A DNA stretch of 57,379 bases from an uncultured Candidatus Saccharibacteria bacterium (lineage in GTDB: Bacteria > Patescibacteriota > Minisyncoccia > UBA6257 > 2-01-FULL-56-20). The notes under the pieces were generated by a model that saw nothing but the letters and a program-made list of their open reading frames with translations, did no database searches and was not told the DNA's origin. Numbering within the stretch: the first letter of the stretch is position 1; every line of letters starts with the position of its first letter. The stretch covers positions 67,456 to 124,834 of the forward strand of contig CAYHZA010000001.1 in the NCBI GenBank assembly GCA_964361095.1. The letters are read 5' to 3'. Positions 45 through 18,472 of the stretch are shown here, piece by piece. The position numbers were made by a program, and so were the translations under genes.

Positions 45-1529
45 ATGTGCTCGGTGCTTCGGTTAGAAAAACATCGCATGCCCAAAGCTGGAAAAATACA
101 AATAATCAAATATGCTCCGCCTCCGTCCGAACTTCCGATTTATGGAAGGTTTGATCCAATTGATGTTTCGTTCATCGGAAAGACGAATTATGTCGCCGCG
201 CTCGAAGACAAGCGGTTTATTTTTGGTATCAAGCGCGTTGACCGAAGGCGCCATCTTTATATTGTCGGCAAAAGCGGTGTGGGGAAATCAAAGCTTCTCG
301 AGCTTTTGATCCGTCAGGATGTTGCGCATGGGCATGGGCTTTGCCTTATGGATCCGCACGGCGACGTGATTGAAGCGATTCTTGATTTTGTGCCGGAGAA
401 TCGTATCGATGACGTTGTGATTATCGATCCTGCGGATATGGCGCATCCGGTTTCATTCAACCCGCTTGCGAATGTTGATCCTTCATTCAAGCATCAGCTG
501 ACGCAAGGACTTATCGAGGTGATGGAAAAGCAATTCGGCGCGAATTGGACGCCGCGTTTGGAACATGTTTTCCGCTTCACCTGTCTCGCGCTCTTGGACT
601 ATCCGCACGCTACGATGCGCGGAATGATCTCGATGCTTACGGATCGGAATTATCGTCAGAAGGTGGTGGAGTATATCGAGGACGACATGGTAAAGCGTTT
701 TTGGGCGATTGAGTTCGCGGATTGGTCGGAAAAATTCGACACGGACGCCATTATTCCTTTGGTGAATAAGCTTGGCCAGTTTCTTTCGGATCCGCTCTTG
801 CGGAATATTTTTGGACAAAAAGAGAATAAGGTAGATCTTGAAAAACTTATCAATGAGAAAAAAATAATCTTTATCAATCTTTCAAAAGGGCGGCTCGGAG
901 AAGAAAATTCGAGCTTTTTGGGTTCGATGTTTATCACGAAGATCAAACAAGCGGGAATGCAACGAGCTTCATTGCCCGAGAAAGATCGGCATGATTTTTA
1001 TCTTTATGTGGACGAGTTTCATAATTTAGTAACGGAAACCTTCGAAAATATTCTCTCGGAAGCCAGAAAATATGCCCTGTGTCTTACGGTCGCGCATCAG
1101 TACGTGGGACAACTTCTGCCCCGCGTTCAAGCGGCGGTCCTTGGGAATACGGGGAGCATTATTATTTTTCGCGTAGGCGGCGAAGATGCCGAGCGCCTCG
1201 AACCGGAAATGGAGCCTATATTTAAGGTGAAGGATATGATTAACCTTGGCATGCAGGAGTTTTACATCAAGATGACCATCGACGGAGAGACCTATGACCC
1301 GTTTTCTGCGGAGACACTCAAAGTTTTACCGGCGCCCCACGGCTCCTTTAAGGATAAGATCGTCGCGGCTTCTCGCCGTAAGTACTCTATTCCCGCGGAC
1401 GCGGCGAAAAAACTTATTCAAGAGGAAGAAGCTACTATTTTCCGGAGCGCGCAGGAAAAAGCCATTATTGAGGGAAAATCTCGGGGCGAGGCCGCCCGGG
1501 AAAACAAAGAACCGGAGCCTCTTATTTAG
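45..1529 (+). CDS. TraD/VirD4-like (T4SS coupling-protein / DUF87-type) P-loop NTPase, paralog 1
   Basis: 494-aa ORF with Walker A GKSGVGKSK, Walker B-like FYLYVDEFHN and an AHQYVGQL motif. Collinear similarity to the ORF at 15165..17078. An alternative ATG lies at 78 (MPKAGK...). Confidence 0.75.
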   Translation: MCSVLRLEKHRMPKAGKIQIIKYAPPPSELPIYGRFDPIDVSFIGKTNYVAALEDKRFIFGIKRVDRRRHLYIVGKSGVGKSKLLELLIRQDVAHGHGLCLMDPHGDVIEAILDFVPENRIDDVVIIDPADMAHPVSFNPLANVDPSFKHQLTQGLIEVMEKQFGANWTPRLEHVFRFTCLALLDYPHATMRGMISMLTDRNYRQKVVEYIEDDMVKRFWAIEFADWSEKFDTDAIIPLVNKLGQFLSDPLLRNIFGQKENKVDLEKLINEKKIIFINLSKGRLGEENSSFLGSMFITKIKQAGMQRASLPEKDRHDFYLYVDEFHNLVTETFENILSEARKYALCLTVAHQYVGQLLPRVQAAVLGNTGSIIIFRVGGEDAERLEPEMEPIFKVKDMINLGMQEFYIKMTIDGETYDPFSAETLKVLPAPHGSFKDKIVAASRRKYSIPADAAKKLIQEEEATIFRSAQEKAIIEGKSRGEAARENKEPEPLI

Positions 1530-1790: not shown

Positions 1791-3497
1791 ATGAATTCGG
1801 AAACGCGCAACTGCCAAAATTGTCGCAAAGATTTTGAGATAGATTCCGAAGATTTTTTATTTTATGAAAAGATAAAGGTGCCGCCCCCGACGTTTTGTCC
1901 TAAATGTCGGCTTCAGAGGCGGCTTTCGTTTGTAAATTTATTCCATCTCTATAAGCGTTCCTGCGATCTTTGTCATAAGCAAACATTTTCTCTTTTCCGA
2001 CAGGACGCGCCTTACGTGGTTTATTGTCCACGGTGCTGGTGGTCTGACGATTGGGATTCCTTGGAGTATGGAAAGGCATACGATTTCTCGAGGCCCTTTT
2101 TTGAGCAGTTAAACGAGCTATGGCATAAGGTTCCGCTTCTTGGTCTCTCGATCGATTTTGTTACCCTCGAAACCTCTCCCTATACGAATCACATCGGCCA
2201 CTTGAAAAACGGCTATCTCGTGTTTCATGCGGATTTCAATGAAGATGTCGCGTACGGTTTTTATCTCGTCCACAACAAGGGACTCGTGGATTCCTCGCTC
2301 GCGATGAGTAGTGAACTATGTTACGACTCGATGCATATCTATAAGGTGAATCGGGGGATTGGATTGCGGAGCCAAGTTACGGAATCGCTTGATTGCGCAT
2401 TCCTCAAGGATTGCATGAATTGCCAAAATTGTTTTGCCTCGGCTAATCTTCGGAGCAAAAAATACTATATTTTTAATAAGCCCTACACCAAAGAAGAATA
2501 TTTTAAAGAAATAAAAAAATGGGATCTTGGTTCGTATAAAGCGTATCAAGAAATTCAAAAAATGTCCGAGGAGCACTGGAGAACATTGCCGCCTAAGCCC
2601 ACGATGGATGAATTTGCCACAAATTGTACCGGGCGTCTCGTGTTCCAATCGAGAAACTGCAAAGATTGCTTCGAGGTGGTCGGTGCGGAGGATAGCCGAT
2701 ATTTATTGATGATGGAAATGGGTCCCGTAAGAGACTCCTACGATCTTTCAAGCTGGGGAAACAATATGGATATGTGCTACGAGTGTTGCGTAGTGGGCGA
2801 GGGGGTATCCCGTGCAAAATTTTGCCAAGAAGCGGGGCTTAGTTTGAACGATGTCGAGTATTCAAAACTCTCTACCGGGGCAGGGTATCATTTCGGATGC
2901 GTTTCGGTAAGGAAAACAAAATATTGTATCTTGAATAAGCAATACGAAGAGAAGAAATTCAACGAACTGCGCGAGAAAATTATCGCGCATATGAACGAGA
3001 TGCCGTATGAGGATGCGAAGGGGCGAGTGTATCGTTATGGAGAATTTTTCCCAACCGAGATGAGCCCTTATGCCTATAATGAAACCATCGCGTCCCGCTT
3101 TTTTCCTCTTGCAAAAGAAGCGACAGAAGAGAAGGGATATCGCTGGCAGGAGCCGGAACAGGGCGCTTATGCGATTACGAAAGACGCCCGCGATCTTCCC
3201 GATCATATAAAGGACGCGACGGACGCCGTACTTCACGAAGTAATCGGATGCGAAGCATGCGGTAAGGGGTTTAAAATTATCAAAATGGAACTCGATTTTT
3301 TGCGAAACATGAACCTCCCGCTCCCGCGGCGATGTCCCATGTGCCGCATCAACGAAAAATTCGACCAGTGGGTCAAAAATTTAAGAGTGTTCAAGCGCAC
3401 ATGTTCAAAGTGCGGCACTGGATTTGAGACGAATTATCCGAAAGAGGAAGTCGATTACATTTTATGTAGAGAGTGCTATCTTAAAGAAATAGTATGA
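1791..3497 (+). CDS. Cys-rich multi-zinc-ribbon protein, array paralog P1 (function unknown)
   Basis: 568 aa. N-terminal ribbon CQNC..F.I..EDF.FYEKIKVPPPTFCPKCR, then a second ribbon CDLC..CPRC. Two internal CxxCF..LRxKxY.I.NK.Y caps. C-terminal CEAC..FKII..ELDF..LPLPRRCPMCR plus CSKC..CRECY. Its stop overlaps the P2 start (ATGA). Confidence 0.85.
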   Translation: MNSETRNCQNCRKDFEIDSEDFLFYEKIKVPPPTFCPKCRLQRRLSFVNLFHLYKRSCDLCHKQTFSLFRQDAPYVVYCPRCWWSDDWDSLEYGKAYDFSRPFFEQLNELWHKVPLLGLSIDFVTLETSPYTNHIGHLKNGYLVFHADFNEDVAYGFYLVHNKGLVDSSLAMSSELCYDSMHIYKVNRGIGLRSQVTESLDCAFLKDCMNCQNCFASANLRSKKYYIFNKPYTKEEYFKEIKKWDLGSYKAYQEIQKMSEEHWRTLPPKPTMDEFATNCTGRLVFQSRNCKDCFEVVGAEDSRYLLMMEMGPVRDSYDLSSWGNNMDMCYECCVVGEGVSRAKFCQEAGLSLNDVEYSKLSTGAGYHFGCVSVRKTKYCILNKQYEEKKFNELREKIIAHMNEMPYEDAKGRVYRYGEFFPTEMSPYAYNETIASRFFPLAKEATEEKGYRWQEPEQGAYAITKDARDLPDHIKDATDAVLHEVIGCEACGKGFKIIKMELDFLRNMNLPLPRRCPMCRINEKFDQWVKNLRVFKRTCSKCGTGFETNYPKEEVDYILCRECYLKEIV

Positions 3498-5296
3498 CCA
3501 CGGAAACCCATTCGAAAAACTCAGGGCAAGCGCGACCATGTCAGAATTGTAAAAAGGACTTCGTCATCGAACCGGAAGACTTCAATTTCTACGAAAAAAT
3601 AAAAGTTCCGCCGCCGACGTGGTGTTGGCGGTGTCGCGCGATGCGCCGGATGGCATTTCGCAATATGCGGCATTTGTATGCCCGGACTTGTGATGCGACG
3701 GGAATAAAAATCTTTACATTGATGCCACCAGATAATTCAATGCCAGTGTACAGCAATAGTTATTGGAATAGCGACGAATGGGATCCGATGAATTATGGGA
3801 AAGATTACGACTTCTCGAAACCTTTTTTCGCTCAAATCCGAGAACTCTATAACGCTGTACCATGGGGATTTATGTGGTCTATGAATAATGTGAACAGCGA
3901 CTATGGGCAAATTGCTTTCTCAAAGAATTGTTATATGTGTTTTGATTCCGGATATGACGAGGACAGTGCTTACAACATTACGTTGCTTTATAGCAAGCAT
4001 TGTTTTGATGGATTGAATCTAAAGGACTGCGAATTTTGTTACTATTCGATCAATACGAATCAATCCTATAAAACGTTTTTCTCGCGGAACTGTACCTCGT
4101 GCGTTGATGTTTGGTTCAGCCAAGATTGTATTGGCTGTACCAATTGTTTTGGATGCAGTGGTCTTCGCAATCAGAGCTATTGTATTTTTAACAAACAGTA
4201 CGATAAAGAAACCTACGATACCAAGCTCAAAGAAATGAGTCTTCATTCTTGGCAAGGCATTCAAGCAATGAGAAAACAAGCCGAAGAATTTTGGAAAAAA
4301 GTACCGCTCAAATTTCAGCATGGTTTTCAGGTGACGCACAGCTACGGAGACTATCTTTATAATGGAACCGAGCTCCGTAACTGCTTCTTTGTGGGCAATG
4401 CCCAAAACATGAAACACTGTCAGAGTGTCATTTATCCGCCGAATCACGACGGGATGGATGTAACATCAAGCGAGGGAACAGAACTGGCATATGAAGTACT
4501 CGGTTCAGGCGGCGGGGCAGAACGAGTACTGGCTACGGTTGAAAGCCTCGCAATAAGCGATAGTTACTACTCCATTGATTGTCGACAGGTCAATAATATC
4601 TTTGGGTGTATTGCACTACACAATAAGAATTATTGTGTTTTAAATAAGCAGTATTCTAAAAAAGAATATTTTGAACTAGTGCCTAAAATCAAAAAACATA
4701 TGGACGATATGCCGTATATCGATGCGCTAGGTCGGGTATATAAATTTGGAGAATTTTTTCCACCCGACATGAGTTCTTATGGGTATAGCCAGACGCAGGC
4801 GTTTGAGTACTTCCCGCTTACCAAAGAAGAAGCGCAGAAACAAGGTTTTCGTTGGCGTGTGCCGGAAGAAAGAAAATATATTATCACAAAAAAGGCAAGC
4901 GAACTTCCCGGCAGTATTTCTGTAGTTGATAATTCAATTTTAGGGGAGGTGATTCAGTGTGAGCATGAAGAGGCCAATGGGCACGTGTCAGGGTGCGACA
5001 TAGATTGCGCCAGCGCTTTCCGCATTACTCAACAAGAGCTTGATTTTTATCGCCAGATGCAGTTGCCGCTACCGAGACTTTGTTTTAACTGCAGGCATAT
5101 TGATCGATTACAGTGGCGCAATACGCCAGCCCTTTATTCTCGTCAGTGTGCGTGTGACTACAAAATTTTCAATAATTCAACCGAACACCAGCATCATCCT
5201 AATGGCAGATGCCCCAACAAATTTGAAACAAGCTACGCTCCGGAGCGGCCGGAAATTGTCTACTGCGAGCAATGTTACCAAGTGGAAGTGGTATGA
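3494..5296 (+). CDS. Cys-rich multi-zinc-ribbon protein, array paralog P2
   Basis: 600 aa, collinear with P1. N-terminal CQNC..FYEKIKVPPPTWCWRCR. The second N-terminal ribbon cysteines are lost. NCFGCSGLRNQSYCIFNKQY cap. C-terminal FRITQQELDFYRQMQLPLPRLCFNCR and ETSYAPERPEIVYCEQCY. Confidence 0.85.
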   Translation: MTTETHSKNSGQARPCQNCKKDFVIEPEDFNFYEKIKVPPPTWCWRCRAMRRMAFRNMRHLYARTCDATGIKIFTLMPPDNSMPVYSNSYWNSDEWDPMNYGKDYDFSKPFFAQIRELYNAVPWGFMWSMNNVNSDYGQIAFSKNCYMCFDSGYDEDSAYNITLLYSKHCFDGLNLKDCEFCYYSINTNQSYKTFFSRNCTSCVDVWFSQDCIGCTNCFGCSGLRNQSYCIFNKQYDKETYDTKLKEMSLHSWQGIQAMRKQAEEFWKKVPLKFQHGFQVTHSYGDYLYNGTELRNCFFVGNAQNMKHCQSVIYPPNHDGMDVTSSEGTELAYEVLGSGGGAERVLATVESLAISDSYYSIDCRQVNNIFGCIALHNKNYCVLNKQYSKKEYFELVPKIKKHMDDMPYIDALGRVYKFGEFFPPDMSSYGYSQTQAFEYFPLTKEEAQKQGFRWRVPEERKYIITKKASELPGSISVVDNSILGEVIQCEHEEANGHVSGCDIDCASAFRITQQELDFYRQMQLPLPRLCFNCRHIDRLQWRNTPALYSRQCACDYKIFNNSTEHQHHPNGRCPNKFETSYAPERPEIVYCEQCYQVEVV

Positions 5297-5334
5297 ATGA
5301 AGCGCTATGACGCGTCATAGCATACGCATTCAAC

Positions 5335-6987
5335 ATGAATAAAGAAACGCGAAATTGCCAAAACTGTAAGCAGGAATTCCGTATTGAGCCGGAAGATCGT
5401 ATTTTCTATGAACGATTCGGTATTCCCGCCCCCGATGAGTGTCATCGGTGCATTTGGAAGCATCTCATGGCATTTTGGGTATTTGGTAAATTTCGGAAAA
5501 CTAAATCCGCACTTTCGGGCAAAACGATTATCACTACATTCGGGGAAAAAACGAAATTCCCGCTCTACGATCGGACAGAGTGGATTTCGGATTCCTGGGA
5601 CCCGCTTTCCTATGGAAAAGAGTACGATCTTAACCGCTCGTTTTTCGAACAATTCAAGGAATTGCAGGATCGCGTTCCGCATCCTCACCAGTCTGGCACA
5701 AATAATTTGAATTCCGACTGGTGCGATGATGTATGGAATTCAAAGAATTGTTATCTTATACGCGGTTTATTGGATTGCGAAAACCTATACTACGGCTGTC
5801 GGAATATTCGCTGTAAAAATTCCATTGACCTCGTGTTTTGTTTTGATATGGACTTGTCGTACGACTGTGCTTACTGTTTCAAGTGTTATAACGTGCGCCA
5901 CTCGTTTGATGCTCGAGACAGCATTGAAAGCGCGTTCCTTTACGATTGCCGGAATGTTCAGAACTGCTTTATGTGCTGGAATTTACGCAACAAACAATAT
6001 TATATATTGAACAAACCGTATTCCAAGGAGGCATATTTTGAGGAGATGAAGAAATACAATCTGCGCTCTCGAAGCCGCATCGAGGAATTAAAAAAAGAAT
6101 TCGCGCAGATTCTCGCGCGCGAGGCGATCCATCGCTCAAGCTATAACGTAAAGGCGGTAAACTCCAAGGGCAATTTTCTGGAGGAGTGCAAGAATTGTTA
6201 CGATTGCTATTTTATCGAATATTCAGAAAACAATCGGCATATGTTTCGTGGGGGGTTCATAAAAGATTCCATTTATGGAGTCGGTACTATTGTCGAAAAA
6301 GCCCTTTATTCGGTTGTCGATAATAAGAGTTATGACACCATCGCAACCATGCACTGCGATAACTGCCGCTATTCCGCATACCTCGATTATTGCGAGGAAT
6401 GCGAATATTGTTTTGGCTGTGTAAGTCTCCGAAAGAAAAAATACTGTATCTTGAATAAGCAATATTCGGAAGAAGAATATAAAACGCTTTTGCCAAAGAT
6501 CAAGGAATCCATGATCGGAAAAGGAGAATGGGGGAAATTTCTCCCTTACTCCATGGCGTATGGCGGCTATAATTCCTCGGTAGCAAGTCTCTATTTTCCT
6601 GCCACCGAGGAGGACGTGAAGCAATGGGGAGGAATATGGGAGAGGGCATATGAAAAAGTATCTAGTGGAATTCCCGGAAATACCCTGCCGGATATGATTG
6701 ATGATGTGTCGGAAGATATTTCTCAAAAACAGATTTTATGTCCAAGAACGGGGTGGCACTTCAATATCGCCCCCGGCGAACTTCAATTTTACAAAGCACA
6801 GGGTATCCCTTTGCCGCAGCACCATTTTGATATACGGATCCTCGATCTTTTTAAACAACTTACTGCCGTTACTCTTTTTTCGGGCACCTGCTCTTTTTGC
6901 AAGAAAGATATAACTCATTATTATCCTCCCGAGTGGGGCTACAAAAAGATTGCGTGTGTTGAGTGTTATCAGCAGCAAGTATCATGA
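5335..6987 (+). CDS. Cys-rich multi-zinc-ribbon protein, array paralog P3 (most divergent)
   Basis: 550 aa starting MNKETRNCQNCKQEF.IEPED..FYERFGIPAPDECHRC. Keeps the internal CxxCF.C..LRxKxYxILNK caps and the C-terminal CVECYQQQVS. Several ribbon Cys are replaced. Confidence 0.8.
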   Translation: MNKETRNCQNCKQEFRIEPEDRIFYERFGIPAPDECHRCIWKHLMAFWVFGKFRKTKSALSGKTIITTFGEKTKFPLYDRTEWISDSWDPLSYGKEYDLNRSFFEQFKELQDRVPHPHQSGTNNLNSDWCDDVWNSKNCYLIRGLLDCENLYYGCRNIRCKNSIDLVFCFDMDLSYDCAYCFKCYNVRHSFDARDSIESAFLYDCRNVQNCFMCWNLRNKQYYILNKPYSKEAYFEEMKKYNLRSRSRIEELKKEFAQILAREAIHRSSYNVKAVNSKGNFLEECKNCYDCYFIEYSENNRHMFRGGFIKDSIYGVGTIVEKALYSVVDNKSYDTIATMHCDNCRYSAYLDYCEECEYCFGCVSLRKKKYCILNKQYSEEEYKTLLPKIKESMIGKGEWGKFLPYSMAYGGYNSSVASLYFPATEEDVKQWGGIWERAYEKVSSGIPGNTLPDMIDDVSEDISQKQILCPRTGWHFNIAPGELQFYKAQGIPLPQHHFDIRILDLFKQLTAVTLFSGTCSFCKKDITHYYPPEWGYKKIACVECYQQQVS

Positions 6988-7082
6988 CCACAGAAACGCG
7001 CACGTGCCAAAACTGTCCCGACCCCGATTTGTCGTGGGTCGAGGATCCGCGATCCCAAAGGGATCGGGACAAAAACCAATGA
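6984..7082 (+). other. decapitated paralog 5' end reading as a 32-codon leader ORF
   Basis: ATG at 6984 overlaps the P3 stop (ATGA) and encodes MTTETRTCQNC, the family N-terminus. It then runs into a 56-bp hairpin insert and stops at TGA 7080-7082, which overlaps the P4 ATG. Confidence 0.6.
7015..7070. repeat. miniature inverted-repeat insert (two hairpins) inside the old P4 5' end
   Basis: It starts GTCCCGA and ends TCGGGAC, an exact 7-bp terminal inverted repeat. Internal hairpin cgatccc-aaa-gggatcg. Confidence 0.55.
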
Positions 7083-8782
7083 ACCAAGAAACAAAAGTTT
7101 GTCAGAATTGTAAAAGCCAGTTCACGATTGAACCGGAGGATTTCCAGTTCTACGAGAAAATGCAGGTGCCACCGCCTACGTGGTGCCCGGAATGCCGATT
7201 TATTCGCCGTCTTTCGTTCATGAATATACGCACGCTTTATAAACGAACGTGTAGTCGTTGCAATAGTTCGATGATCGCAATGTACCCGGAAGATTCATCT
7301 GTTCTTGTATATTGTAATACGTGCTGGTGGTCGGATAAGTGGGATGGTACTGAATATGGTAGGGCATATGATCCTTCAAAGCCGTTTCTCGAACAACTCT
7401 ATGAGCTTTCGCGGATAACGCCCTATATGGCACTTGAAAATCTTTACACATCCCTTGTGGATACGGAGTACACCAATTATGCGGCATATCAGAAGAATTG
7501 TTATCTTACGTATTACTCCGATTACGCAAATAATGTTTTATACGCAATGTTCATTGCGCATGTAAACGATAGTATGGATTGCTATAGAATCCGAGATTCA
7601 GAGCTTTGCTACGAGGCGACGGGGTGCTATAAATCCTCGCGCGTGTTTTTCTCCGAAGAGTGCACGGATTCTCACGATATATGGTTCTCGAAAAATTTGA
7701 TAGGTTGTTCCAATTGTGTGGGATGCGTCAATCTTCGTAACAAATCGTACTGCATTTTCAACGAGAAATATTCAAAGGAGGAATATCATCGGATAATAGA
7801 GGAGATGGATCTTCATACGCAACGTGGTATTGATGCTGTCTCGAAAAAGGCCAAAGAATTTTGGCTTACTAAACCGCGCCGTGCATACGAGGGAAATTCT
7901 CTTAATGTGAACGTGACCGGTGATTATGTGTATGAATCAAAAAATGCGCACGATTGTTATATGGCAACCTCCGTGGAGGATGGAAAGTTTGTTCAGTTTA
8001 TCTCGTTGCCTAAAGTCAAAGATGCATATGACTACAGTGGGTGGGGAAATAATGTCGAAAGGATTTATGAGTGTGACATTGTGGGCGAAGGGGCTTATAA
8101 CGTGAAATTTTCAAGCGAGTGTTGGCCAGATGCGCGAGACGTCGAATACTCTATGTATGCGAACGCTTGCACAAACTGTTTTGGTTGTGTGAATTTAAAA
8201 AAGAAATCGTACTGTATTTTAAATAAACAATACTCGAAAGAAGACTATGAGCGGTTGCGAGAAGAGATTATAAAGAATATGAACGAAAAGCCTTATCGAG
8301 ATGAGAAAGGGAGAGTCTATCCTTATGGAGAGTATTTCCCTTTGAATTTTTCTTTATTTGCTTATAACGAAACAATGGCTTATGCGTATTTTGAGAAAGA
8401 TCGTGATGTGATCAAAAAAGAAGGTTTTCAGTGGAGAGAGCAAGAAGTTTCAACACACACCCCCACGCTCAAAGCAGATCAGCTCCCCTTAACGATTTCC
8501 GAAACACCAGACACTATCACTCGCGAGATCGTTGCATGTTTTTCTTGCGCGCGTGCGTACCGAATTATTCCGCAGGAATTAAGCCTTCTTCGGCATTTGA
8601 ATTTGCCAGCGCCTCAACGGTGTCCAGAATGTCGCCATTTGCGCCGTTTCCAAAGTACAAATCCCCCAAGACTTTACGAGAGAAATTGCGCGAAATGCGG
8701 CATTCCTATAAAAACTTCCTACGCTCCAGAACGACCGGAAATCGTGTACTGCGAACAGTGCTACAATGCTGAAGTAGCATAA
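7079..8782 (+). CDS. Cys-rich multi-zinc-ribbon protein, array paralog P4
   Basis: 567 aa from ATG 7079 (MNQETKVCQNCKSQFTIEPEDFQFYEKMQVPPPTWCPECR). The ORF-track start at 6950 overlaps P3 and has no family similarity. Second ribbon CSRC..CNTC is present. C-terminus ETSYAPERPEIVYCEQCYNAEVA. Confidence 0.85.
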   Translation: MNQETKVCQNCKSQFTIEPEDFQFYEKMQVPPPTWCPECRFIRRLSFMNIRTLYKRTCSRCNSSMIAMYPEDSSVLVYCNTCWWSDKWDGTEYGRAYDPSKPFLEQLYELSRITPYMALENLYTSLVDTEYTNYAAYQKNCYLTYYSDYANNVLYAMFIAHVNDSMDCYRIRDSELCYEATGCYKSSRVFFSEECTDSHDIWFSKNLIGCSNCVGCVNLRNKSYCIFNEKYSKEEYHRIIEEMDLHTQRGIDAVSKKAKEFWLTKPRRAYEGNSLNVNVTGDYVYESKNAHDCYMATSVEDGKFVQFISLPKVKDAYDYSGWGNNVERIYECDIVGEGAYNVKFSSECWPDARDVEYSMYANACTNCFGCVNLKKKSYCILNKQYSKEDYERLREEIIKNMNEKPYRDEKGRVYPYGEYFPLNFSLFAYNETMAYAYFEKDRDVIKKEGFQWREQEVSTHTPTLKADQLPLTISETPDTITREIVACFSCARAYRIIPQELSLLRHLNLPAPQRCPECRHLRRFQSTNPPRLYERNCAKCGIPIKTSYAPERPEIVYCEQCYNAEVA

Positions 8783-8791
8783 GAACAAAAC

Positions 8792-8998
8792 ATGCCCGAT
8801 AATCACAAGCCTCCATTACGAAGCGAGGTAAAACCAGGAGTTGCCGTATGGATTATTGAAAAAAAGAACTACGGGACCGATAATTACACGCAGGGGATTG
8901 TAAGGGAAGTGCTTACCTCGAAGGGAGAGCATCCCCGCGGCATCAAGGTACGTCTCACCGATGGCACAGTAGGCCGTGTGCAGTGGCTTGTGGAATAA
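8792..8998 (+). CDS. YwbE-family small protein (DUF2196-like)
   Basis: 68 aa. GTDNYTQGIV.EVLTS...HPRGIKVRL.DG.VGRV matches my recollection of the YwbE family signature. Confidence 0.6.
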   Translation: MPDNHKPPLRSEVKPGVAVWIIEKKNYGTDNYTQGIVREVLTSKGEHPRGIKVRLTDGTVGRVQWLVE

Positions 8999-9003
8999 GA
9001 TTT

Positions 9004-9108
9004 ATGAATAAAGAAACAAAAACACATTCGCAAGGCTCAGTGTCTTCGACTTGTCAAAACTCCGACGTTTCAGTCGGAGCCCCGACCCAAGGGGCGTCGG
9101 GGCTGTAA
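9004..9108 (+). other. decapitated paralog 5' end reading as a 34-codon leader ORF
   Basis: Encodes MNKETKTHSQGSVSSTCQN, very close in protein and DNA to the P6 start MKQETKAHSQDSVSPICQNC. It then enters a hairpin insert and stops at TAA 9106-9108, 10 nt before the P5 ATG. Confidence 0.6.
9060..9103. repeat. miniature inverted-repeat insert (two hairpins) inside the old P5 5' end
   Basis: Hairpins tccgac-gtttca-gtcgga and ccccgac-ccaaggggc-gtcgggg. The ends CTCCGACG / CGTCGGGG are inverted with 7 of 8 matches. Confidence 0.5.
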
Positions 9109-9118
9109 AATAAAAACC

Positions 9119-10891
9119 ATGACCTCAGAAGTCAAAGTTTGTCAGAATTGTCGTGGCCAGTTCACGATTGAACCGGAAGACTTCAACTTCTACGAAAAAA
9201 TAAAAGTCCCACCGCCGACGTTTTGCCCGGAATGTCGGATGATACGACGGTTTATCTGGCGCAGTGATCATCATTTGTTTAGGCGGAAGGATGGCGCGTC
9301 CGATAAGGAAATTTTTTCCGGGTTTCACAAGGATGTTTCGGCCGCAATCTATGATCTTGATTATTGGAATTCGGACGCGTGGGATCCGATGCAATACGGG
9401 CGAGAATATGATTTTTCGCGTCCGTTTTTCGAGCAATTCAAGGAGTTCCTTTATACCGTGCCGTGGCCGGCAAAAAGCGTACAGCGCATGATAAATTCCG
9501 ATTATTGTGACCAGGCGGGAGGTTTTAAAAATTGCTATCTCTGTTTTTCCGCTGACGGAACCGAAAATTCCGCGTATATGGTTTTCGGGGGCATGTCCCG
9601 CGATTCTCTTGATTGCTATGAAGTGCGCGACAGTGAACTGTGTTATCAGGATGTTATGGTTGACGAAAGTTACCGAACATTCTTTTCGCTCGACTGTGAG
9701 AGTTGCACGGACGTATGGTTTTCTCGGGATTTGATCGGGTGTACGAACTGTTTTGGGTGCGTGGGGTTGCGAAGCAAGTCTTACTGCATATTCAACCAGC
9801 CCTACTCTCGCGAGGAATATATCGAAAAACTGAAGAGTTTCGGCTTGAATTCGCATAGCAATATCCAGGTTTTTAGGAAAAGAGCGTACGAGTTTTGGCT
9901 GAAGTTTCCCGTTAAATTTATTCACGGATTACAAAATGTAAACTCCACCGGGGAACACATGCACAATACCAAAAATGTCCATCATTCTTTCGACGTACAT
10001 GGCGGTGAGAACTTAAAATACTGCCAATTCATTGCGCCTCCCGCTTCAGATTCTTACGACTATTCAAATTGGGGCGTAGGCACTTCGCTGATGTATGAAT
10101 GTATGACATGCGGAGAAGGATGCAGTGAAATGAAGTTCTGTTTCGAATCGTGGCCGGGAAGCCGCGCTCTTGAATACTCCGCCTTTTGCCGTTCTTCCTC
10201 GGATCTTTTCGGATGCGTCAGTTTAAAGAAAAAACAATATTGCATTTTCAATAAGCAGTATTCCAAAGAGGAGTATTTCGCATTGCGGGAAAAAATTATT
10301 AAGCACATGAACGAAATGCCCTATACGGACGCGCGTGGCCATGTATATAAATACGGCGAATTTTTCCCGCAAGAATTTTCGCCCCTCGCGTATAACGAAT
10401 CGATTGCCAATGATTTTTTTAAACTTACGAAAGAAGAGGCGCTTGTCAAAGGATATACGTGGCGCGACGCGGAACCGCAGGAATATCAGACTACGAAAAA
10501 TGCGGTTGATCTCCCGGATACGATCGAAGAAGTTTTCGAGGATATTTTAAAAGACATCATTAAATGCGAACGATGCGGAAAGGCCTATCGGATTATTAAA
10601 ATGGAGCTGGATTTTTATCGGCGCATCGGTTTGCCTCTTCCGCACTTGTGTGTTCTTTGCAGATTTGAAGATCGCTTTAAATTCGTAAATCCGCCGAAAT
10701 TCTGGCACGCAAAATGTCACTGCGCAGGGCAAACAAGTGACCAGCAACAGGTGACAGGCGACAAGTATCAAAATACTGTGAGTCATTTCCATGGCACCGA
10801 TCGCTGCCTGAATGAGTTTGAGACGAGCTATGATCCAAAAAGGCCTGAGATTGTGTATTGTGAAAGTTGTTATCAGTCAGAAGTAGCATAA
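9119..10891 (+). CDS. Cys-rich multi-zinc-ribbon protein, array paralog P5
   Basis: 590 aa starting MTSEVKVCQNCRGQFTIEPEDFNFYEKIKVPPPTFCPECR. NCFGCVGLRSKSYCIFNQPY and LFGCVSLKKKQYCIFNKQY caps. C-terminal CERCGKAYRIIKMELDFYRRIGLPLPHLCVLCR and IVYCESCYQSEVA. Confidence 0.85.
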   Translation: MTSEVKVCQNCRGQFTIEPEDFNFYEKIKVPPPTFCPECRMIRRFIWRSDHHLFRRKDGASDKEIFSGFHKDVSAAIYDLDYWNSDAWDPMQYGREYDFSRPFFEQFKEFLYTVPWPAKSVQRMINSDYCDQAGGFKNCYLCFSADGTENSAYMVFGGMSRDSLDCYEVRDSELCYQDVMVDESYRTFFSLDCESCTDVWFSRDLIGCTNCFGCVGLRSKSYCIFNQPYSREEYIEKLKSFGLNSHSNIQVFRKRAYEFWLKFPVKFIHGLQNVNSTGEHMHNTKNVHHSFDVHGGENLKYCQFIAPPASDSYDYSNWGVGTSLMYECMTCGEGCSEMKFCFESWPGSRALEYSAFCRSSSDLFGCVSLKKKQYCIFNKQYSKEEYFALREKIIKHMNEMPYTDARGHVYKYGEFFPQEFSPLAYNESIANDFFKLTKEEALVKGYTWRDAEPQEYQTTKNAVDLPDTIEEVFEDILKDIIKCERCGKAYRIIKMELDFYRRIGLPLPHLCVLCRFEDRFKFVNPPKFWHAKCHCAGQTSDQQQVTGDKYQNTVSHFHGTDRCLNEFETSYDPKRPEIVYCESCYQSEVA

Positions 10892-10928
10892 TATTGTTTT
10901 CCGTTCTTCGGGGTGCTATAATTGAGCT

Positions 10929-11153
10929 ATGACCACCGTTACTATTCCGAAAGAATTAACTAAAAAAGGGGATCTCGTTGTAATTCCGAAGAGCGAATAT
11001 GAAGAGTTTTTGAAATTCCGCCGAGCGGTTAGAATTGCGGAACCGACCCGATCAGAAAAACGCGCCATCGAGCGTGGCAGAAAAGAACTGCGGGCAGGGC
11101 GTTTTATTTCTTGGGAAAAGTTAAAAAATGATTTGGCGCGTCGTTCTCGGTAA
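10929..11153 (+). CDS. type II antitoxin (small DNA-binding-type partner of the downstream RelE/ParE toxin)
   Basis: 74-aa ORF overlapping the downstream toxin ORF by 26 nt. The size and position are typical of an antitoxin. The family was not recognised. Confidence 0.55.
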   Translation: MTTVTIPKELTKKGDLVVIPKSEYEEFLKFRRAVRIAEPTRSEKRAIERGRKELRAGRFISWEKLKNDLARRSR

Positions 11154-11385
11154 TCATGCCGAGAAAAAGCTACGGCGTTTCCCTCGCAAAGAAAAACTGC
11201 GTATCGCGGAAACAATTGAGGCATTGCGATCCGCCCCTTTCGCGGGCGACGTGGTGAAGCTCGGGGGTATGGGAAATGCTTGGCGGTTGCGTGTCGGAAA
11301 CTATCGAATTATTTTCGAACTTTTCTCCAAGGAACGGATGCTTTTTATCTCCGAAATTGTGCGGAGAACAAGTGCCACTTATTAA
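11128..11385 (+). CDS. RelE/ParE-family type II toxin
   Basis: 85 aa. The core ...WRLRVGNYRIIFEL...ERMLFISEIVRR is typical of RelE/ParE toxins. Confidence 0.7.
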   Translation: MIWRVVLGNHAEKKLRRFPRKEKLRIAETIEALRSAPFAGDVVKLGGMGNAWRLRVGNYRIIFELFSKERMLFISEIVRRTSATY

Positions 11386-11415
11386 AGCACGAAACGGTCT
11401 GCTCGTTATTCTCTT

Positions 11416-13128
11416 ATGAAGCAAGAAACTAAAGCACATTCGCAAGACTCAGTGTCTCCGATTTGTCAGAACTGCAAAGGGCAATTTGTAATAGACGCTC
11501 AAGATTTTCAATTCTACGAAAAAATAAAGGTCCCGCCGCCCACGTTTTGTCCGCAATGTCGGCTTCAGCGGCGATTAGCACAGAGAAACGAGCGTTCGCT
11601 TTATAAAAGAAATTGCGGTCTCTGCGGGGAAAGTATTATTACAATGTATTCGCCCGACAAGCCGTTTAAGGTGTATTGTCCTGGGTGCTATTACTCCGAT
11701 AAATGGGATCCGAAAGAGTATGAACGCGACTACGATTTTTCACGCTCGTTTTTTGAGCAATTTAAGGAGCTTCAAGACAATATTCCGCACCTCTCGCTTC
11801 TTCAGGAAAATTCGGTCAATAGTCCGTGGATTAATTACGAACTGGACGACAAGAATTGTTATCTTAATTTTGGGGGTCACCTGAACGAAGATTGTGCGTA
11901 TAATCAATATGTTTTGAAATGCCGTGATTGCTTTGATAATTTTTGGATGATGAATGGTCAGTTTGTCTATGAATCTATTCTTTCTGAAAACTGTTATAAA
12001 ACCTTCCATTCGAAATTGTGTTTAGATTGCCGCGATACGTATTTTTCATTCGACTGCCGCAATTGCTCGAATATTTTTGGCTGTTCGGGATTGCGGCATA
12101 AGCAGTACCATATTTTTAATAAACCGGTCTCGAAGGAGGAGTTTGAAAAGTTTATAAAAGAGAATTCATTGGATTCCTATGTAAACATGGAAAAATTCAA
12201 AAACCAAGCCGATGACTTTTGGAAATCCCAGCCTCAGCGAGCCGTGTTTATTGATAAGTCGGTGAACAGTACTGGAAACTTGATCAAGGAATCGAAAAAC
12301 TGCGCTTCATGCTGGAATGCCGAAAGAACAGAAGATTCAAAATATATGGTATTTACACTCCAAGTGAAAGACGCGATGGACACCACTTCGGTATGGGGAG
12401 GGGAGCTTCTGTATGAGTTTATTGCCGGATCCGAGCAGCTTGCGAATATCAGGTTTACGATTGGCGCTCTTCGCGGACCCACTAACTTGGAGTATTGCCG
12501 TTTTATTTTTAATTCTCATAATTGTTTCGGATGCGTGAATATGAGAGATAAAAAGTTTTGTATTTTAAACAAACAATATTCAAAAGAGGAATATACGGAG
12601 CTCCGAGAAAAAATTATTGCCCATATGAATGCAATGCCATACATCGATCGAGCAGGCAGAAATTATCGATATGGTGAGTTTTTTCCGGTTGAACTTTCTT
12701 TGTTTGGCTATAACGAAACAGTAGCAAATGAATATTTCCCGCTTGAACGCGACGAAGTCCTGCGGCAGGGATTTCCGTGGAATGATTACGAGGCGGAGAA
12801 AACTTATCAATTTTCCGATTATAAGATTCCGGATAATATTCGTGACGCCAAAGACGATATTTTGGAAAAAGTTTTGAAATGCGAAATCTCTGGAAAGCCA
12901 TATCGGATAATCCCGATGGAGCTTGCGTTTTACCGCCGGTTTGGTTTGCCGATTCCACGCGCGGCTCCATTTGAACGGCATCGGGGACGTCTGCGGTTTA
13001 TCGCCGATCATTTGAAACTTCGCGATCGAACGTGTGATAAGTGCGGGAAGATAATTCAAAGTGTTTATACAAAAGAGGAATTTCCCCGTGTTTACTGCCA
13101 TGAGTGTTATATCAGCGAAGTAGCATAG
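11416..13128 (+). CDS. Cys-rich multi-zinc-ribbon protein, array paralog P6
   Basis: 570 aa starting MKQETKAHSQDSVSPICQNCKGQFVIDAQDFQFYEKIKVPPPTFCPQCR. Second ribbon CGLC..CPGC is present. Two CF/FGC..(L/M)R.K.. caps. C-terminal CDKCGK...VYCHECYISEVA. Confidence 0.85.
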   Translation: MKQETKAHSQDSVSPICQNCKGQFVIDAQDFQFYEKIKVPPPTFCPQCRLQRRLAQRNERSLYKRNCGLCGESIITMYSPDKPFKVYCPGCYYSDKWDPKEYERDYDFSRSFFEQFKELQDNIPHLSLLQENSVNSPWINYELDDKNCYLNFGGHLNEDCAYNQYVLKCRDCFDNFWMMNGQFVYESILSENCYKTFHSKLCLDCRDTYFSFDCRNCSNIFGCSGLRHKQYHIFNKPVSKEEFEKFIKENSLDSYVNMEKFKNQADDFWKSQPQRAVFIDKSVNSTGNLIKESKNCASCWNAERTEDSKYMVFTLQVKDAMDTTSVWGGELLYEFIAGSEQLANIRFTIGALRGPTNLEYCRFIFNSHNCFGCVNMRDKKFCILNKQYSKEEYTELREKIIAHMNAMPYIDRAGRNYRYGEFFPVELSLFGYNETVANEYFPLERDEVLRQGFPWNDYEAEKTYQFSDYKIPDNIRDAKDDILEKVLKCEISGKPYRIIPMELAFYRRFGLPIPRAAPFERHRGRLRFIADHLKLRDRTCDKCGKIIQSVYTKEEFPRVYCHECYISEVA

Positions 13129-13191: not shown

Positions 13192-13497
13192 ATGATATTT
13201 CTTTACGTACCCTGCAAAGACGTTGACGAGGCGAAAAAGATAGGCAGGAAGCTCATTGAACAGAAAGCCGCCGGTTGCGTGAATATCGCGCCGATCCATT
13301 CGATCTATCGGGAGGACGATAAAATTCGCGAGGTTTCCGAGGCGTCGCTTCTTATAAAGACGATCGACTCCAAAGTTCAGCAAGTGGAAGATATCGTGCG
13401 CGATATGCACAGTTACGCGGTTCCCTGCATCGCGTCCTTTGCCCTGCACCGTCTCAATCGCGAATATAAGGATTGGCTCGTGGGGTGTGTGGCATAA
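13192..13497 (+). CDS. cutA: divalent-cation tolerance protein CutA
   Basis: 101 aa. Layout typical of CutA1: ...AACVNI.P..S.Y......E..E..L..KT. Confidence 0.7.
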   Translation: MIFLYVPCKDVDEAKKIGRKLIEQKAAGCVNIAPIHSIYREDDKIREVSEASLLIKTIDSKVQQVEDIVRDMHSYAVPCIASFALHRLNREYKDWLVGCVA

Positions 13498-13570: not shown

Positions 13571-15079
13571 ATGAAAATCGAACTCGTAAAAAAACTCGAT
13601 AAAGAAAGAGTGCCCGTGTTTTTAATAAAAGAAGGCGCGAAGGCGGAGCGGCATCCGTTTGCGAAATTTTTAAGCAAAGAGGATATTACGTACCTTCGCG
13701 CGTTTGAGGCAAAAATGCCCATAAAAACGGGGAGTACGAATATGATTTTTTTCCCGAGCGGTTCGCGGGTATTTATTTTAGGTGTTGAAGCGCGCGCGAA
13801 ATTTAATCACCGGAGAGCGATTCTCGCCGCGCGGCGCGCGGTTTCGTATGCGCGAAAAGAGCGGATAAAAGAAATTGTCGTGAATTTGGAAGATTTCGCG
13901 ACTCCTTTCGTGAAGGATTCGAAAGCGGTTGCGGAGCTCATCGCCACGCAATTCGAGCTCGCGAATTTTGAATTTATCGCCTACAAGACGGCACCTCCCG
14001 AAGGGTGGTCGTTTGTTGAGGGAGTATTTGTGGCATCGGAAAAAAACAGCAAGACGATCGTGGACGCGCTCTGTGCGGGGCAGATTATCGGGTGGGAGAT
14101 CAATTTGGCGCGCGATCTTTCAAACACACCCGGTGGCGATATGACCCCCGCTTCCTTAGCCGAGGCGGCAATACGGAGCGGAAAACAATGTGGGTTTAAA
14201 GTTTCCGTTTTAGAGAAGGAAGAGATGGAAAAACTTGGCATGGGAGGCGTGCTTGGCGTTGCAAAAGGCTCTTCCGAGTTGCCGAAGTTTATCGTGATGG
14301 AATATATGAAAGGAAAAAAATCCGAGAAACCCACAGTGCTTGTGGGAAAAGGAGTTACGTTCGACACCGGAGGGTTGAATTTGAAGCCCGAGCAGGGGAT
14401 TTATGAGATGCATATGGATATGACGGGAGGCGCGGGGGTAATTCATACGATTGCCGCGCTTGCGCGTCTTAAGGTAAAGAAAAATATTATCGGTCTCGTG
14501 CCCGCGGTGGAGAATATGCCGTCCGGCTCGAGCTATCATCCGGGAGATGTCTTAAGAACGATGTCCGGAAAGACGATCGAGATATTAAACACCGATGCCG
14601 AGGGGAGGGTGATCCTCGCGGACGCGCTTACCTATGCGCAAAGATATAATCCGCGGCTCGTGATCGATGTCGCAACGCTCACGAGTTCGGCGATGTCTGC
14701 CTTGGGTCAGCGCGCCTCCGCGCTTTTCGCGACAACTCCCGCGCTTATAAAATCGTTTCAAGAGTTCGGCGAGCGCACGGGGGATTACGTTTGGCCCCTA
14801 CCTCTTTGGGAAGAATACGAGGAGGATATTAAGGGGACGTTCGGAGATGTGACAAATAGCACGAAAAGCCGCTATGGGGGCGTCGTGACTGCCGCGGCGT
14901 TTCTTTGGCAGTTTATAAAAAATCCTCCCTCGAAAGTCTCGGGACATCCGCCTGCGGCTCCTGCTTGGGTGCACTTAGATATCGCGCCGCGGATGACCGC
15001 GATAGAGGGCGAATTTTTATCGAAGGGCGCCGTGGGCGCTTCGATCGCCCTTCTTACGGCTTTTTTGCGAAAGTTTTAA
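13571..15079 (+). CDS. pepA: leucyl aminopeptidase (M17)
   Basis: 502 aa containing the NTDAEGRVILADAL signature, VGKGVTFDTGG and a GGAG.. motif. Confidence 0.85.
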   Translation: MKIELVKKLDKERVPVFLIKEGAKAERHPFAKFLSKEDITYLRAFEAKMPIKTGSTNMIFFPSGSRVFILGVEARAKFNHRRAILAARRAVSYARKERIKEIVVNLEDFATPFVKDSKAVAELIATQFELANFEFIAYKTAPPEGWSFVEGVFVASEKNSKTIVDALCAGQIIGWEINLARDLSNTPGGDMTPASLAEAAIRSGKQCGFKVSVLEKEEMEKLGMGGVLGVAKGSSELPKFIVMEYMKGKKSEKPTVLVGKGVTFDTGGLNLKPEQGIYEMHMDMTGGAGVIHTIAALARLKVKKNIIGLVPAVENMPSGSSYHPGDVLRTMSGKTIEILNTDAEGRVILADALTYAQRYNPRLVIDVATLTSSAMSALGQRASALFATTPALIKSFQEFGERTGDYVWPLPLWEEYEEDIKGTFGDVTNSTKSRYGGVVTAAAFLWQFIKNPPSKVSGHPPAAPAWVHLDIAPRMTAIEGEFLSKGAVGASIALLTAFLRKF

Positions 15080-17078: not shown

Positions 17079-17733
17079 ATTTGATATCGTTACGATTTTT
17101 CCGAACATATTCGACTCCTATCTCAAGGAATCGCTTTTTAAGCGCGCGCAAAAAACAGGGATCATTGACGTGCATATGGTAAACCTCCGCGATTTCGCGG
17201 AAGGGAAACGGAGAATATCGGGTGATGATCTCCGTCGGACCGTTGACGACAAGCCATTTGGCGGCGGGGCGGGAATGGTATTGAAATTTGAACCAATAGA
17301 GGCGGTGGTACGAGCTTTAAGAAAAAAATCAAAGGGGAAAACGCGCGTTATACTTTTTTCTACACGTGGGAAAAAATTGGACGCAAGCGTCGCGAAGCGT
17401 CTTGCAAAATATGACGAAATTATTTTGCTTTGCGGGCGGTACGAAGGCGTGGACGAACGTGTGGCGGAACATATCGCGGACGAGGAAATTTCGATAGGTG
17501 ACTACATACTCTCGGGAGGGGAACTTCCGGCGATTGTTTTAATAGAAGCAGTGAGCCGCTTTATCCCGGGATTTCTGGGGAAGTACGAATCGCTTGAAGA
17601 CGTAAAAGGATCGTATCCTGTCTATACGCGACCGGAGGTTGTGAAAGTCGGAAAGAAGAAAATAGAAGTGCCCTCTGTACTGCTTTCGGGCAACCATAAA
17701 AAGATAGATGAATGGCGGAAAAGCAAGCGTTAA
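17056..17733 (+). CDS. trmD: tRNA (guanine37-N1)-methyltransferase
   Basis: 225 aa. FDIVTIFPNIF..Y...S...RA, GGGAGMV, LLCGRYEGVDERV and GDY.LSGGE are canonical TrmD motifs. Confidence 0.9.
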   Translation: MMKGKKIRFDIVTIFPNIFDSYLKESLFKRAQKTGIIDVHMVNLRDFAEGKRRISGDDLRRTVDDKPFGGGAGMVLKFEPIEAVVRALRKKSKGKTRVILFSTRGKKLDASVAKRLAKYDEIILLCGRYEGVDERVAEHIADEEISIGDYILSGGELPAIVLIEAVSRFIPGFLGKYESLEDVKGSYPVYTRPEVVKVGKKKIEVPSVLLSGNHKKIDEWRKSKR

Positions 17734-17762
17734 TACCGCTAGAAGCTTTGTTTCTAACGGGA

Positions 17763-17792
17763 TTGACAAAATAGTATTTTACGTGGTATAAT
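17763..17792 (+). promoter_or_regulatory. strong sigma70 promoter with extended -10
   Basis: TTGACA (17763-17768), an 18-nt spacer ending in TGG, then TATAAT (17787-17792). It is followed by a leader of about 100 nt before ATG 17895. Confidence 0.6.
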
Positions 17793-17894
17793 TAATCCAG
17801 TTCCTTAAGAAGCGATAAGCGCTCTCTTTGGGGGAGACGAACTCCTTCGGCATCTTGCCCGGAACCCATTCCCGACGAACGGGAAGGAGGTTGT

Positions 17895-18374: not shown

Positions 18375-18472
18375 CTGATTCATCGCAGGAATAACACTTT
18401 CTGCGGCCATGCCTCGAATCACTACGGTTCGGGGCATTTTTTATACTTTGCGGGGAGATGTAGAATAAGAGC

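Follow-up and report, generated by a model that had tools for sequence, protein, structure and literature searches.

A large family of predicted double-solenoid proteins with zinc-finger ends, encoded beside VirD4-like ATPases in Parcubacteria-type Patescibacteria

A survey of 2,918 genomes of the Candidate Phyla Radiation (CPR) counted 5,713 VirD4-type homologs, about two per genome, of which only 148 lie near virB4; the authors suggest exaptation of these coupling proteins, and their role was left open (10.1101/2025.01.22.634366). Small proteins of Methanosarcina mazei with the spacing CxxC-x17-CxxC bind zinc, as determined by inductively coupled plasma mass spectrometry (PMC12704099). Here we describe a stretch of 57,379 nucleotides (nt), hereafter the window, from an uncultured Candidatus Saccharibacteria bacterium (GTDB lineage Bacteria; Patescibacteriota; Minisyncoccia; UBA6257; 2-01-FULL-56-20), comprising positions 67,456 to 124,834 of the forward strand of contig CAYHZA010000001.1 in assembly GCA_964361095.1. 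The list of open reading frames (ORFs) and a six-way alignment indicate that positions 1791-13128 of the window are filled by six intact plus-strand paralogs of 550-600 amino acids (aa), P1 to P6. We conclude with confidence that they belong to a new, very large and unnamed family of Parcubacteria-type Patescibacteria, and that none of the curated families and solved folds searched includes it.

In the full form of these proteins each end consists of a basic treble-clef finger, CxxC-x24-CxxC with a CR..RR helix, followed by a CxxC-x17-CxxC ribbon. The order along the chain is treble clef and x17 ribbon, predicted solenoid A, helices, predicted solenoid B, a conserved alpha/beta block (MPY...YGEFFP...SPFAYNET...FPLTKEEA...G..W) and again treble clef and x17 ribbon. 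The six genes are:

1791-3497, plus strand: P1, 568 aa; its four terminal fingers are all intact; belongs to a conserved ortholog group.
3494-5296, plus strand: P2, 600 aa; has lost the second N-terminal ribbon; both C-terminal fingers carry insertions; its start overlaps the end of P1 (ATGA).
5335-6987, plus strand: P3, 550 aa, the most divergent copy; has lost the second N-terminal ribbon and the cysteines of the C-terminal treble clef; MPY block shortened by a deletion; belongs to a conserved ortholog group.
7079-8782, plus strand: P4, 567 aa; canonical architecture (the mechanical ORF opens at TTG 6950; the alignment favours ATG 7079).
9119-10891, plus strand: P5, 590 aa; second N-terminal ribbon lost; last ribbon with a Cys/His-bearing insertion; member of a conserved ortholog group.
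11416-13128, plus strand: P6, 570 aa; second N-terminal ribbon kept; C-terminal treble-clef cysteines lost.

The original prediction, made from the letters of the window and its ORFs, had proposed six intact, co-oriented tandem paralogs with seven shared motif blocks, and both the array and all seven blocks were recovered in the alignment. The proteins are collinear end to end at pairwise identities of 30-46%, and even the weakest pair, P2/P3, gives a BLASTP E value of 2e-73. P2 and P4 have in common a peptide of 17 aa, TSYAPERPEIVYCEQCY, preceded by E in P2 and by K in P4, so that the claim of an identical peptide with synonymous differences holds once its exact limits are corrected; 11 of its 51 nt differ, all of them synonymously, which indicates that the copies are old and not an assembly artefact. 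An artefact or a recent duplication is ruled out by this codon divergence and by protein identities of at most 46%. Several ATGA overlaps had also been claimed. That of P1 and P2 is genuine and is the only one joining two intact genes, whereas the ATGA at the end of P3 (6984) copies the arrangement of the P1/P2 junction and opens a relic of 11 codons, not a gene.

No whole-protein match to a family was obtained in Pfam, NCBIfam or PADLOC, the scans, made with all or several of the paralogs, returning only sub-threshold finger matches and spurious ones to Med15, VCPO and Wx5. In PADLOC, where P1, P3, P5 and the flanking ATPases were scanned, the three paralogs had no match and the ATPases only distant ones to mad8/HerA. 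A profile of the six paralogs found nothing below E 0.1 among the sequences of the PDB, Foldseek searches of the PDB with two AlphaFold2 models gave at best E 0.013 and a template-modelling score of no more than 0.2, with left-handed beta-helix enzymes as top matches, and a search of BFVD with one model gave local zinc-ribbon and tailspike matches only. No description of the family was found in the literature on it, on its finger domains or on cysteine-rich or beta-helix proteins of Parcubacteria. The earlier impression that no characterised family could be recognised is thus borne out.

The family is very large. With one paralog as query, at least 7,982 of 8,000 scored candidates were homologs; every name given at a source is 'hypothetical' or 'uncharacterized', and where a source organism is named it belongs to the Sung-, Lipton-, Brenner- or Uhr-bacteria or to other Parcubacteria. 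When 1.84 billion cluster representatives (50% identity) were searched with a profile, at least 5,353 matched with E <= 1e-3, 2,269 of them with E <= 1e-30, and data holding one genome per species contained at least 576 confirmed stretches. Among the matches listed, the titles of the stretches are nearly all Patescibacteria, including Nomura-, Staskawicz-, Giovannoni-, Jorgensen- and Sung-bacteria. The tblastn searches gave no match in phage and plasmid collections and one partial match in IMG/VR (2.9 million viral contigs), and on these searches an origin in mobile elements or viruses was rejected. For closer comparison we used 79 loci from representative genomes, each of at most 21.8 kb and together 1.27 Mb (loci and related contigs are given below by L numbers). 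One contig (L042, CAYJLM010000079.1, 7.4 kb), with two or three copies, comes from a metagenome-assembled genome (MAG) labelled 'uncultured Gammaproteobacteria', probably a binning error and not an occurrence outside Patescibacteria. Many other MAGs bear a generic 'Saccharibacteria' label.

The middle of the protein is internally duplicated, as had been noticed: residues ~104-240 and ~253-392 of P5 align with an hhalign probability of 99.8% (E 2e-30). AlphaFold2 models were obtained for P5, from an alignment of 65 sequences (predicted local distance difference test, pLDDT, 84; predicted template-modelling score, pTM, 0.87), and for P4, from 143 diverse sequences (pLDDT 92, pTM 0.92). Residues 181-226 of the P4 model follow a strict 12-residue strand pattern (E--E--EEEE--), and in the alignment, set out in a 12-residue register, the coil consensus [EK]-[ND]-C-[YF]-[YF]-[CS]-[FY]-[ND]-[CL]-x-[NG]-[CS], with Cys or Ser at every third residue, recurs in about nine coils in half A and more loosely in half B. 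Each paralog is therefore predicted by these models to be a rigid pseudo-twofold body of two homologous beta-solenoids with a 12-residue coil, in keeping with the solenoid-like fold suspected earlier, and the hydropathy of the six paralogs likewise agrees with the earlier reading that they have no transmembrane (TM) or signal-like segment; they are predicted to lie in the cytoplasm. The invariant positions are for the most part occupied by aromatic residues, Cys, Gly and Pro, with Asn, Asp and Arg besides. An acyltransferase-like enzyme was set aside, there being no conserved catalytic residue, and so was an end-to-end polymer of the bactofilin kind, given the conserved helices and further domains after both solenoids and the lack of a match to a bactofilin profile. 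Taking P4 as the example, the model, the knuckle spacings and the domain hidden Markov models (HMMs) place the parts as follows:

7079-7243, plus strand: N-terminal treble clef.
7244-7354, plus strand: N-terminal CxxC-x17-CxxC ribbon.
7469-7768, plus strand: predicted solenoid A.
7904-8236, plus strand: predicted solenoid B.
8237-8524, plus strand: MPY/YGEFFP block.
8525-8668, plus strand: C-terminal treble clef.
8669-8779, plus strand: C-terminal ribbon.

The terminal modules have well-defined spacings. CxxC-x24-CxxC is exact in the treble clefs at both ends, and CxxC-x17-CxxC is exact in the N- and C-terminal ribbons of P1, P4 and P6, with x18 in P3. The penultimate finger at the C-terminus is a copy of the N-terminal one (hhalign probability 98.7%, E 1.5e-16), in line with the repeat described earlier, and the HMMs of the second N-terminal ribbon and of the last ribbon each find about two match positions per family ORF, a sign that homology probably extends to these two ribbons too. 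The N-terminal finger is modelled with strands at residues 4-7 and 14-17 and helices at 19-28 and 37-45, that is, with the two CxxC knuckles and the helix starting from the second knuckle that define a treble clef. Within the window the best match to zf_Tbcl (PF13451) is that of P6 (19.4 bits, E 1.1e-3), below the gathering threshold of 24 bits; 23 of 65 family members match with E <= 0.1 (best 1.4e-4), all of them sub-threshold. The C-terminus of P4 scores 21.6 bits against zf_Tbcl_2 (PF23477) and 17.6 bits against TIGR04272, whose cut-offs of 27 and 36 bits are not reached. The treble-clef segments are basic, with mean net charges of +3.1 and +4.8, and the remainder of the protein is acidic.

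Cysteine co-occurrence across 143 diverse family members indicates what these modules are. The second N-terminal ribbon has all its ligands in 65 members and is lacking in 78, with r = 1.00 among positions 61, 79 and 82. For the C-terminal treble clef, 96 members show CCCC, 32 show C--- and 15 other partial patterns (r = 0.82-0.92), so that this copy is without its ligands in about a quarter of the family. Such joint presence is what would be expected of real four-ligand sites, and the terminal fingers behave, to judge from their sequences, as all-or-none metal sites. In the window P1, P4 and P6 keep the second N-terminal ribbon and the other three copies, P2, P3 and P5, have lost it, exactly as first described; the loss of the C-terminal treble-clef cysteines in P3 and P6 and the Cys/His-bearing insertions in the last ribbon of P2 and P5 had been missed. 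These insertions, of about 27 residues (P2 residues ~553-585, P5 ~533-563), bring in extra Cys and His (CxC...HxH...C) and are nearly invariant among P5-type orthologs; they may constitute an additional metal site.

The central cysteines follow a different rule. Cysteine makes up 5-6% of the window copies and 3.8-8.6% of the proteins across the family, and the original prediction had described the molecule as a multi-zinc-ribbon protein, a description that is supported for the terminal modules and not for the core. Among the 143 members partial patterns of the central cysteines are abundant, absolute values of r stay below 0.45 throughout, and the missing residues are replaced by Ser, Val, Ile, Leu, Thr or Ala. 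Because they vary independently and are swapped with Ser, Val, Ile or Leu, a core ladder is favoured over obligate metal ligands, and the central cysteines look like the inward-facing ladder of a very narrow solenoid. The alternative is that the core itself binds metal, either as a chain of zinc and cysteine or as iron-sulfur (Fe-S) clusters, and serves in metal buffering or electron transfer. We consider this very unlikely. It would account for the cysteine content, for the CxxCxxCxxC motif that ends solenoid A (207/210/213/216 in P4 numbering, conserved at 78-92%; positions 370 and 379 reach 97% and 91%) and for neighbours such as CutA1, an M17 metallopeptidase and a P-type cation ATPase. 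It does not account for the near-independence of the central positions, with CCC- and -CCC both common, while the fingers are all-or-none, nor for P1, P3 and P4, which are without many of the central cysteines; moreover, neither a ferredoxin-type CxxCxxCxxxCP motif nor a match to an Fe-S family in Pfam or NCBIfam was found.

Comparison with other genomes indicates that the paralogs are old. Orthologs of P1 occur at 50-67% identity in L006, L022, L007, L004 and L008, those of P3 at 46-58%, as against 34% or less between P3 and the other window paralogs, and those of P5 at 56-77%. Since these values exceed the 30-46% between paralogs, the paralog lineages must be ancient. Between P5 and its 77% ortholog in L085 the proportion of synonymous differences (pS) is 0.81 and that of nonsynonymous differences (pN) is 0.155; synonymous sites are saturated even for this closest ortholog, and pN and pS are given in place of a ratio of substitution rates. 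By region, pN is lowest in solenoid A (0.088) and highest in the C-terminal fingers (0.29). The number of copies per locus ranges from 1 to 11, with at least two in 49 of the 79 loci, and co-orientation holds for 206 of 208 copies. In L023, L026, L049, L066 and L071 intact copies stand beside family ORFs that are split or partial, either decaying paralogs or assembly frameshift errors. From the sequences, this appears to be an old multigene family under purifying selection, with turnover by birth and death and not by rapid diversification. Between the six genes of the window lie further features, on which the original prediction had been silent as far as the DUF2196 gene and the toxin-antitoxin pair are concerned:

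6984-7016, plus strand: relic 5' stub of a deleted P2-like paralog (direct repeat family D8 and translation); MTTETRTCQNC, then divergence and a stop, in a frame different from that of P4.
8792-8998, plus strand: small DUF2196 (YwbE-like) gene (Pfam PF09962, 6.8e-22).
9004-9061, plus strand: relic 5' stub of a P6-like paralog (MNKETKTHSQGSVSSTCQN...; direct repeat D9 and translation), its DNA 87% identical to the start of P6, just upstream of P5.
10929-11385, plus strand: toxin-antitoxin pair between P5 and P6.
10929-11153, plus strand: putative antitoxin of the pair, 74 aa, without a Pfam match.
11128-11385, plus strand: ParE-family toxin of the pair (Pfam ParE_toxin, 6e-5), overlapping the antitoxin ORF.

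Both stubs look like scars of deleted or recombined paralogs. The DUF2196 gene (67-68 aa) directly follows the P5 ortholog in L085 (11774-11977) and L086 (2257-2460); in the window it lies ahead of P5, from which a relic stub separates it, and this indicates that the array has been rearranged here. A consensus scan for promoters and terminators found no convincing site within the array, the promoters being no more frequent than in shuffled sequence. Some 33 kb downstream, at 46061-49183, the window encodes a restriction-modification enzyme of Type ISP (Type_ISP_C, 7.6e-82; N6 methylase) that appears unrelated to the array.

The view first taken of this locus was that of a diversifying family for binding or recognition, with on/off loss of individual ribbons; widened to defence, it would be one of rapid diversification. 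The numerous paralogs of a genome with their unlike sets of fingers, a toxin-antitoxin pair inside the array and a restriction enzyme elsewhere in the window would be in keeping with it. We now regard it as most improbable: the paralog lineages are ancient and conserved, with pN far below pS, and the presence or absence of the second N-terminal ribbon, divided 65 to 78 in the family, is a fixed trait of old subfamilies. In addition, PADLOC gave no match for P1, P3 or P5, neither the phage nor the plasmid collections yielded the family, the viral contigs yielded a single partial match, and the arrays lie in conserved chromosomal contexts.

The array is flanked by two ATPases, as originally reported:

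45-1529, plus strand: TraD1-type soluble TraD/VirD4/HerA-like P-loop ATPase, the upstream flank of the array (Pfam TrwB_AAD_bind 1.2e-8, DUF87, T4SS-DNA_transf).
15165-17078, plus strand: TraD2-type soluble TraD/VirD4-like ATPase (Pfam TrwB_AAD_bind 5.9e-15, TraG-D_C, zf_Tbcl_2).

This arrangement is strongly non-random. TraD1 homologs directly adjoin family arrays in many other genomes, and of the 49 ORFs resembling type IV coupling proteins (T4CPs) in the 79 loci (38.5 per Mb), 44 are no more than 1 kb away from a family gene. CPR genomes are roughly 1 Mb in size, so that about two VirD4-type genes per genome make the local density more than ten times the background. Where 10-kb flanks are complete, an ATPase is present at 15 of 20 multi-copy loci, and the multi-copy loci with an ATPase span Nomura-, Staskawicz- and Jorgensen-bacteria and other Paceibacteria lineages. 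TraD2 also has a finger in common with the paralogs: its C-terminal extension carries a CxxC-x17-CxxC module (zf_Tbcl_2, 2.1e-13, 50.1 bits, residues 464-495), and the paralog-ribbon HMMs match the TraD2-type finger in eight other loci (E 5e-6 to 7e-4). Fingers of the zf_Tbcl_2 type thus occur in three types of gene in the window, the third encoding an otherwise unassigned 176-aa protein on the minus strand (52113-52643; zf_Tbcl_2 finger CxxC-x17-CxxC, 3.8e-16), for which a similar ORF was matched in L078. In L004 a TraD2-type ATPase of 722 aa (15253-17421) bears zf_Tbcl_2 and a C-terminal NUDIX domain.

Neither TraD1 nor TraD2 has a TM helix. The window begins just upstream of TraD1, so that a DUF8128 gene of its own would fall outside it. 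In relatives, SecD-SecF, a sigma-like protein, DUF8128 and a protein of ~160 aa are followed by TraD1; DUF8128 and the ~160-aa protein have one N-terminal TM helix each. As regards kinship with coupling proteins, the profiles of the ATPase nucleotide-binding domain are above threshold, and the membrane-anchored DUF8128 protein is adjacent (L001, L085) or fused (L004, 3487-5865, 792 aa) to the TraD-like ATPase, the fusion having the topology of a membrane-anchored coupling protein.

We propose, with a probability of roughly 40%, that the finger modules bind nucleic acid or an acidic partner and that the paralogs are adaptors or clients of the ATPases. The solenoid body would keep the two finger modules apart, the fingers would contact nucleic acid or an acidic protein, and the paralogs would serve the two flanking soluble TraD/VirD4-like ATPases. 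Subfamilies of the P1, P3 and P5 types, with their differing finger complements, would supply different specificities or assemble together as hetero-oligomers, and the copy number would shift by gene birth and death.

Several points weigh against this proposal. The link to the ATPases is drawn from gene neighbourhood and one small domain in common, the binding of nucleic acid is deduced from finger type and charge only, and the treble-clef matches in Pfam lie below the gathering threshold. The inward or outward facing of the cysteine and aromatic ladders is inferred from substitution patterns, and the well-conserved cysteines 207/210/213/216 and 370/379 could form a residual metal or Fe-S site. 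Moreover, none of the 11 single-copy loci with complete 10-kb flanks has an ATPase nearby, so that a neighbouring ATPase gene is not needed for the family to function, and the singletons sit among housekeeping genes without a common neighbour (mreB, frr, rseP, ftsEX, prfB and ATP synthase genes).

These singletons speak for another explanation, namely that the family is a housekeeping nucleic-acid-binding factor, for instance in RNA or DNA metabolism, and that proximity to the ATPases is inherited gene order with no functional tie. Its presence across many Parcubacteria-type lineages, its basic fingers and the purifying selection would suit such a role. We find this explanation unlikely, given that TraD1-array-TraD2 and TraD2-array-TraD1 are both seen, in different candidate phyla; an adjacency that survives rearrangement argues against mere inherited synteny, as do the 44 of 49 ATPase genes within 1 kb and the occurrence of the same ribbon in the TraD2 type.

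Adjacency to coupling-protein homologs is also what would be expected if the paralogs were cargo, that is, effectors translocated by the T4CP-like ATPases and exported to a host through a type IV or other channel. ATPases of secretion systems are often encoded beside arrays of their substrates, loci differ in copy number (1 to 11 or more) and contain copies in decay as well as stubs, and Patescibacteria are largely host-dependent and encode components of type IV secretion systems (T4SSs). The C-terminus is fixed, too: in 221 of 224 genomic copies the chain stops exactly 5 residues past the last CxxCY. Position -3 is E in 204 of these and position -2 is V or I in 198, and the final residue is hydrophobic in most. 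This tail is modelled as the terminal helix of the last finger, and its conserved residues could be purely structural or could form a recognition tail. From what is established of T4SS substrates, four zinc fingers with two solenoids would be hard to unfold for export. Old ortholog groups under strong purifying selection would be unusual for host-directed effectors, singletons occur in housekeeping contexts, and the surroundings of the arrays in L001, L004 and L085 hold no gene for a relaxase, VirB4 or another channel component. We therefore hold export of the paralogs as cargo to be decidedly unlikely.

A broader reading, about which we are rather doubtful, joins the arrays, both orphan ATPases and membrane-anchored DUF8128 into one unrecognised machine, Parcubacteria-wide, in which exapted coupling proteins would handle a dedicated set of double-solenoid proteins with four zinc fingers. 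These could serve DNA uptake or transfer as adaptors for nucleic acid, or else be folded cargo passed to a host. If true, it would explain why CPR genomes by the thousands keep coupling-protein homologs away from type IV channels.

The remaining neighbours of the array are:

13192-13497, plus strand: CutA1 (Pfam CutA1, 1.8e-27), an immediate neighbour in 10 other loci, e.g. L008, L013, L015 and L020-L022.
13571-15079, plus strand: M17 leucyl aminopeptidase (Pfam Peptidase_M17, 4e-111), also beside family genes in L004, L006, L008 and L080.
17056-20802, plus strand: TrmD, a 159-aa protein with an N-terminal hydrophobic segment, ComEC and a metallo-beta-lactamase-fold protein (Pfam).

The position of ComEC downstream of the array, to which attention had been drawn, is real in the window; across relatives the link is confined to a subset of loci, where ComEC always follows the second ATPase, usually with TrmD between the two. 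The TrmD-ComEC block has the same order in L001, L004, L032 and L043, and in L022 ComEC comes after TraD2 without TrmD.

A sizeable part of bacterial diversity belongs to the Patescibacteria, whose biology depends to a great extent on proteins without a known function. The family described here often takes up several percent of a genome of roughly 1 Mb, 11.3 kb of it in one array in the present case. It is the most consistent neighbour of VirD4-like ATPases whose role the recent literature leaves unresolved, and it provides the first candidate for a concrete, testable set of partners for these orphan coupling-protein ATPases. A solenoid with a 12-residue coil and zinc-finger ends, as modelled, would also be a new kind of protein for structural study.

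With respect to known proteins, the N-terminal and penultimate modules resemble the 'probable treble clef' zf_Tbcl (PF13451) in their two CxxC knuckles and the helix at the second. Here such a finger is one of four on a protein of 550-600 aa and matches below threshold, and the function of PF13451 is itself unknown. The paralog ribbons share the exact spacing of the CxxC-x17-CxxC domain (PF23477/TIGR04272), of which TraD2 and the protein at 52113-52643 are full members, whereas the ribbons themselves remain sub-threshold (best 21.6 against 27 bits) and the P2 and P5 types carry the insertion of about 27 residues.

For the core, the only recurring Foldseek matches are left-handed beta-helix enzymes (LpxA, LpxD, GlmU and gamma-carbonic anhydrase). 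The likeness consists in an underlying period of 6 in the paralog repeat, with small residues at fixed positions; it is one of fold class and not of membership, since E is 0.013 or more, the template-modelling score no more than 0.2 and the root-mean-square deviation above 11 Å, the coil has 12 residues instead of 18, and the paralogs have neither a Hexapep match in Pfam nor a conserved catalytic His. The antifreeze protein of Tenebrio molitor is likewise a cysteine-rich beta-helix of 12-residue coils with cysteines six apart, which forms a very narrow solenoid. That protein is secreted and disulfide-bonded, whereas the paralogs have no signal peptide, exchange Cys for Ser or Val and carry zinc fingers, and no Foldseek match to it was obtained. 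Finally, in comparison with type IV coupling systems (VirD4/TraD), the ATPases at this locus lack TM helices and their putative partners are unlike known relaxosome proteins or effectors. The flanking ATPases nevertheless match TrwB_AAD_bind, T4SS-DNA_transf and TraG-D_C, the genes of candidate partners are adjacent, and in relatives a membrane anchor would be supplied by the neighbouring or fused DUF8128 protein.

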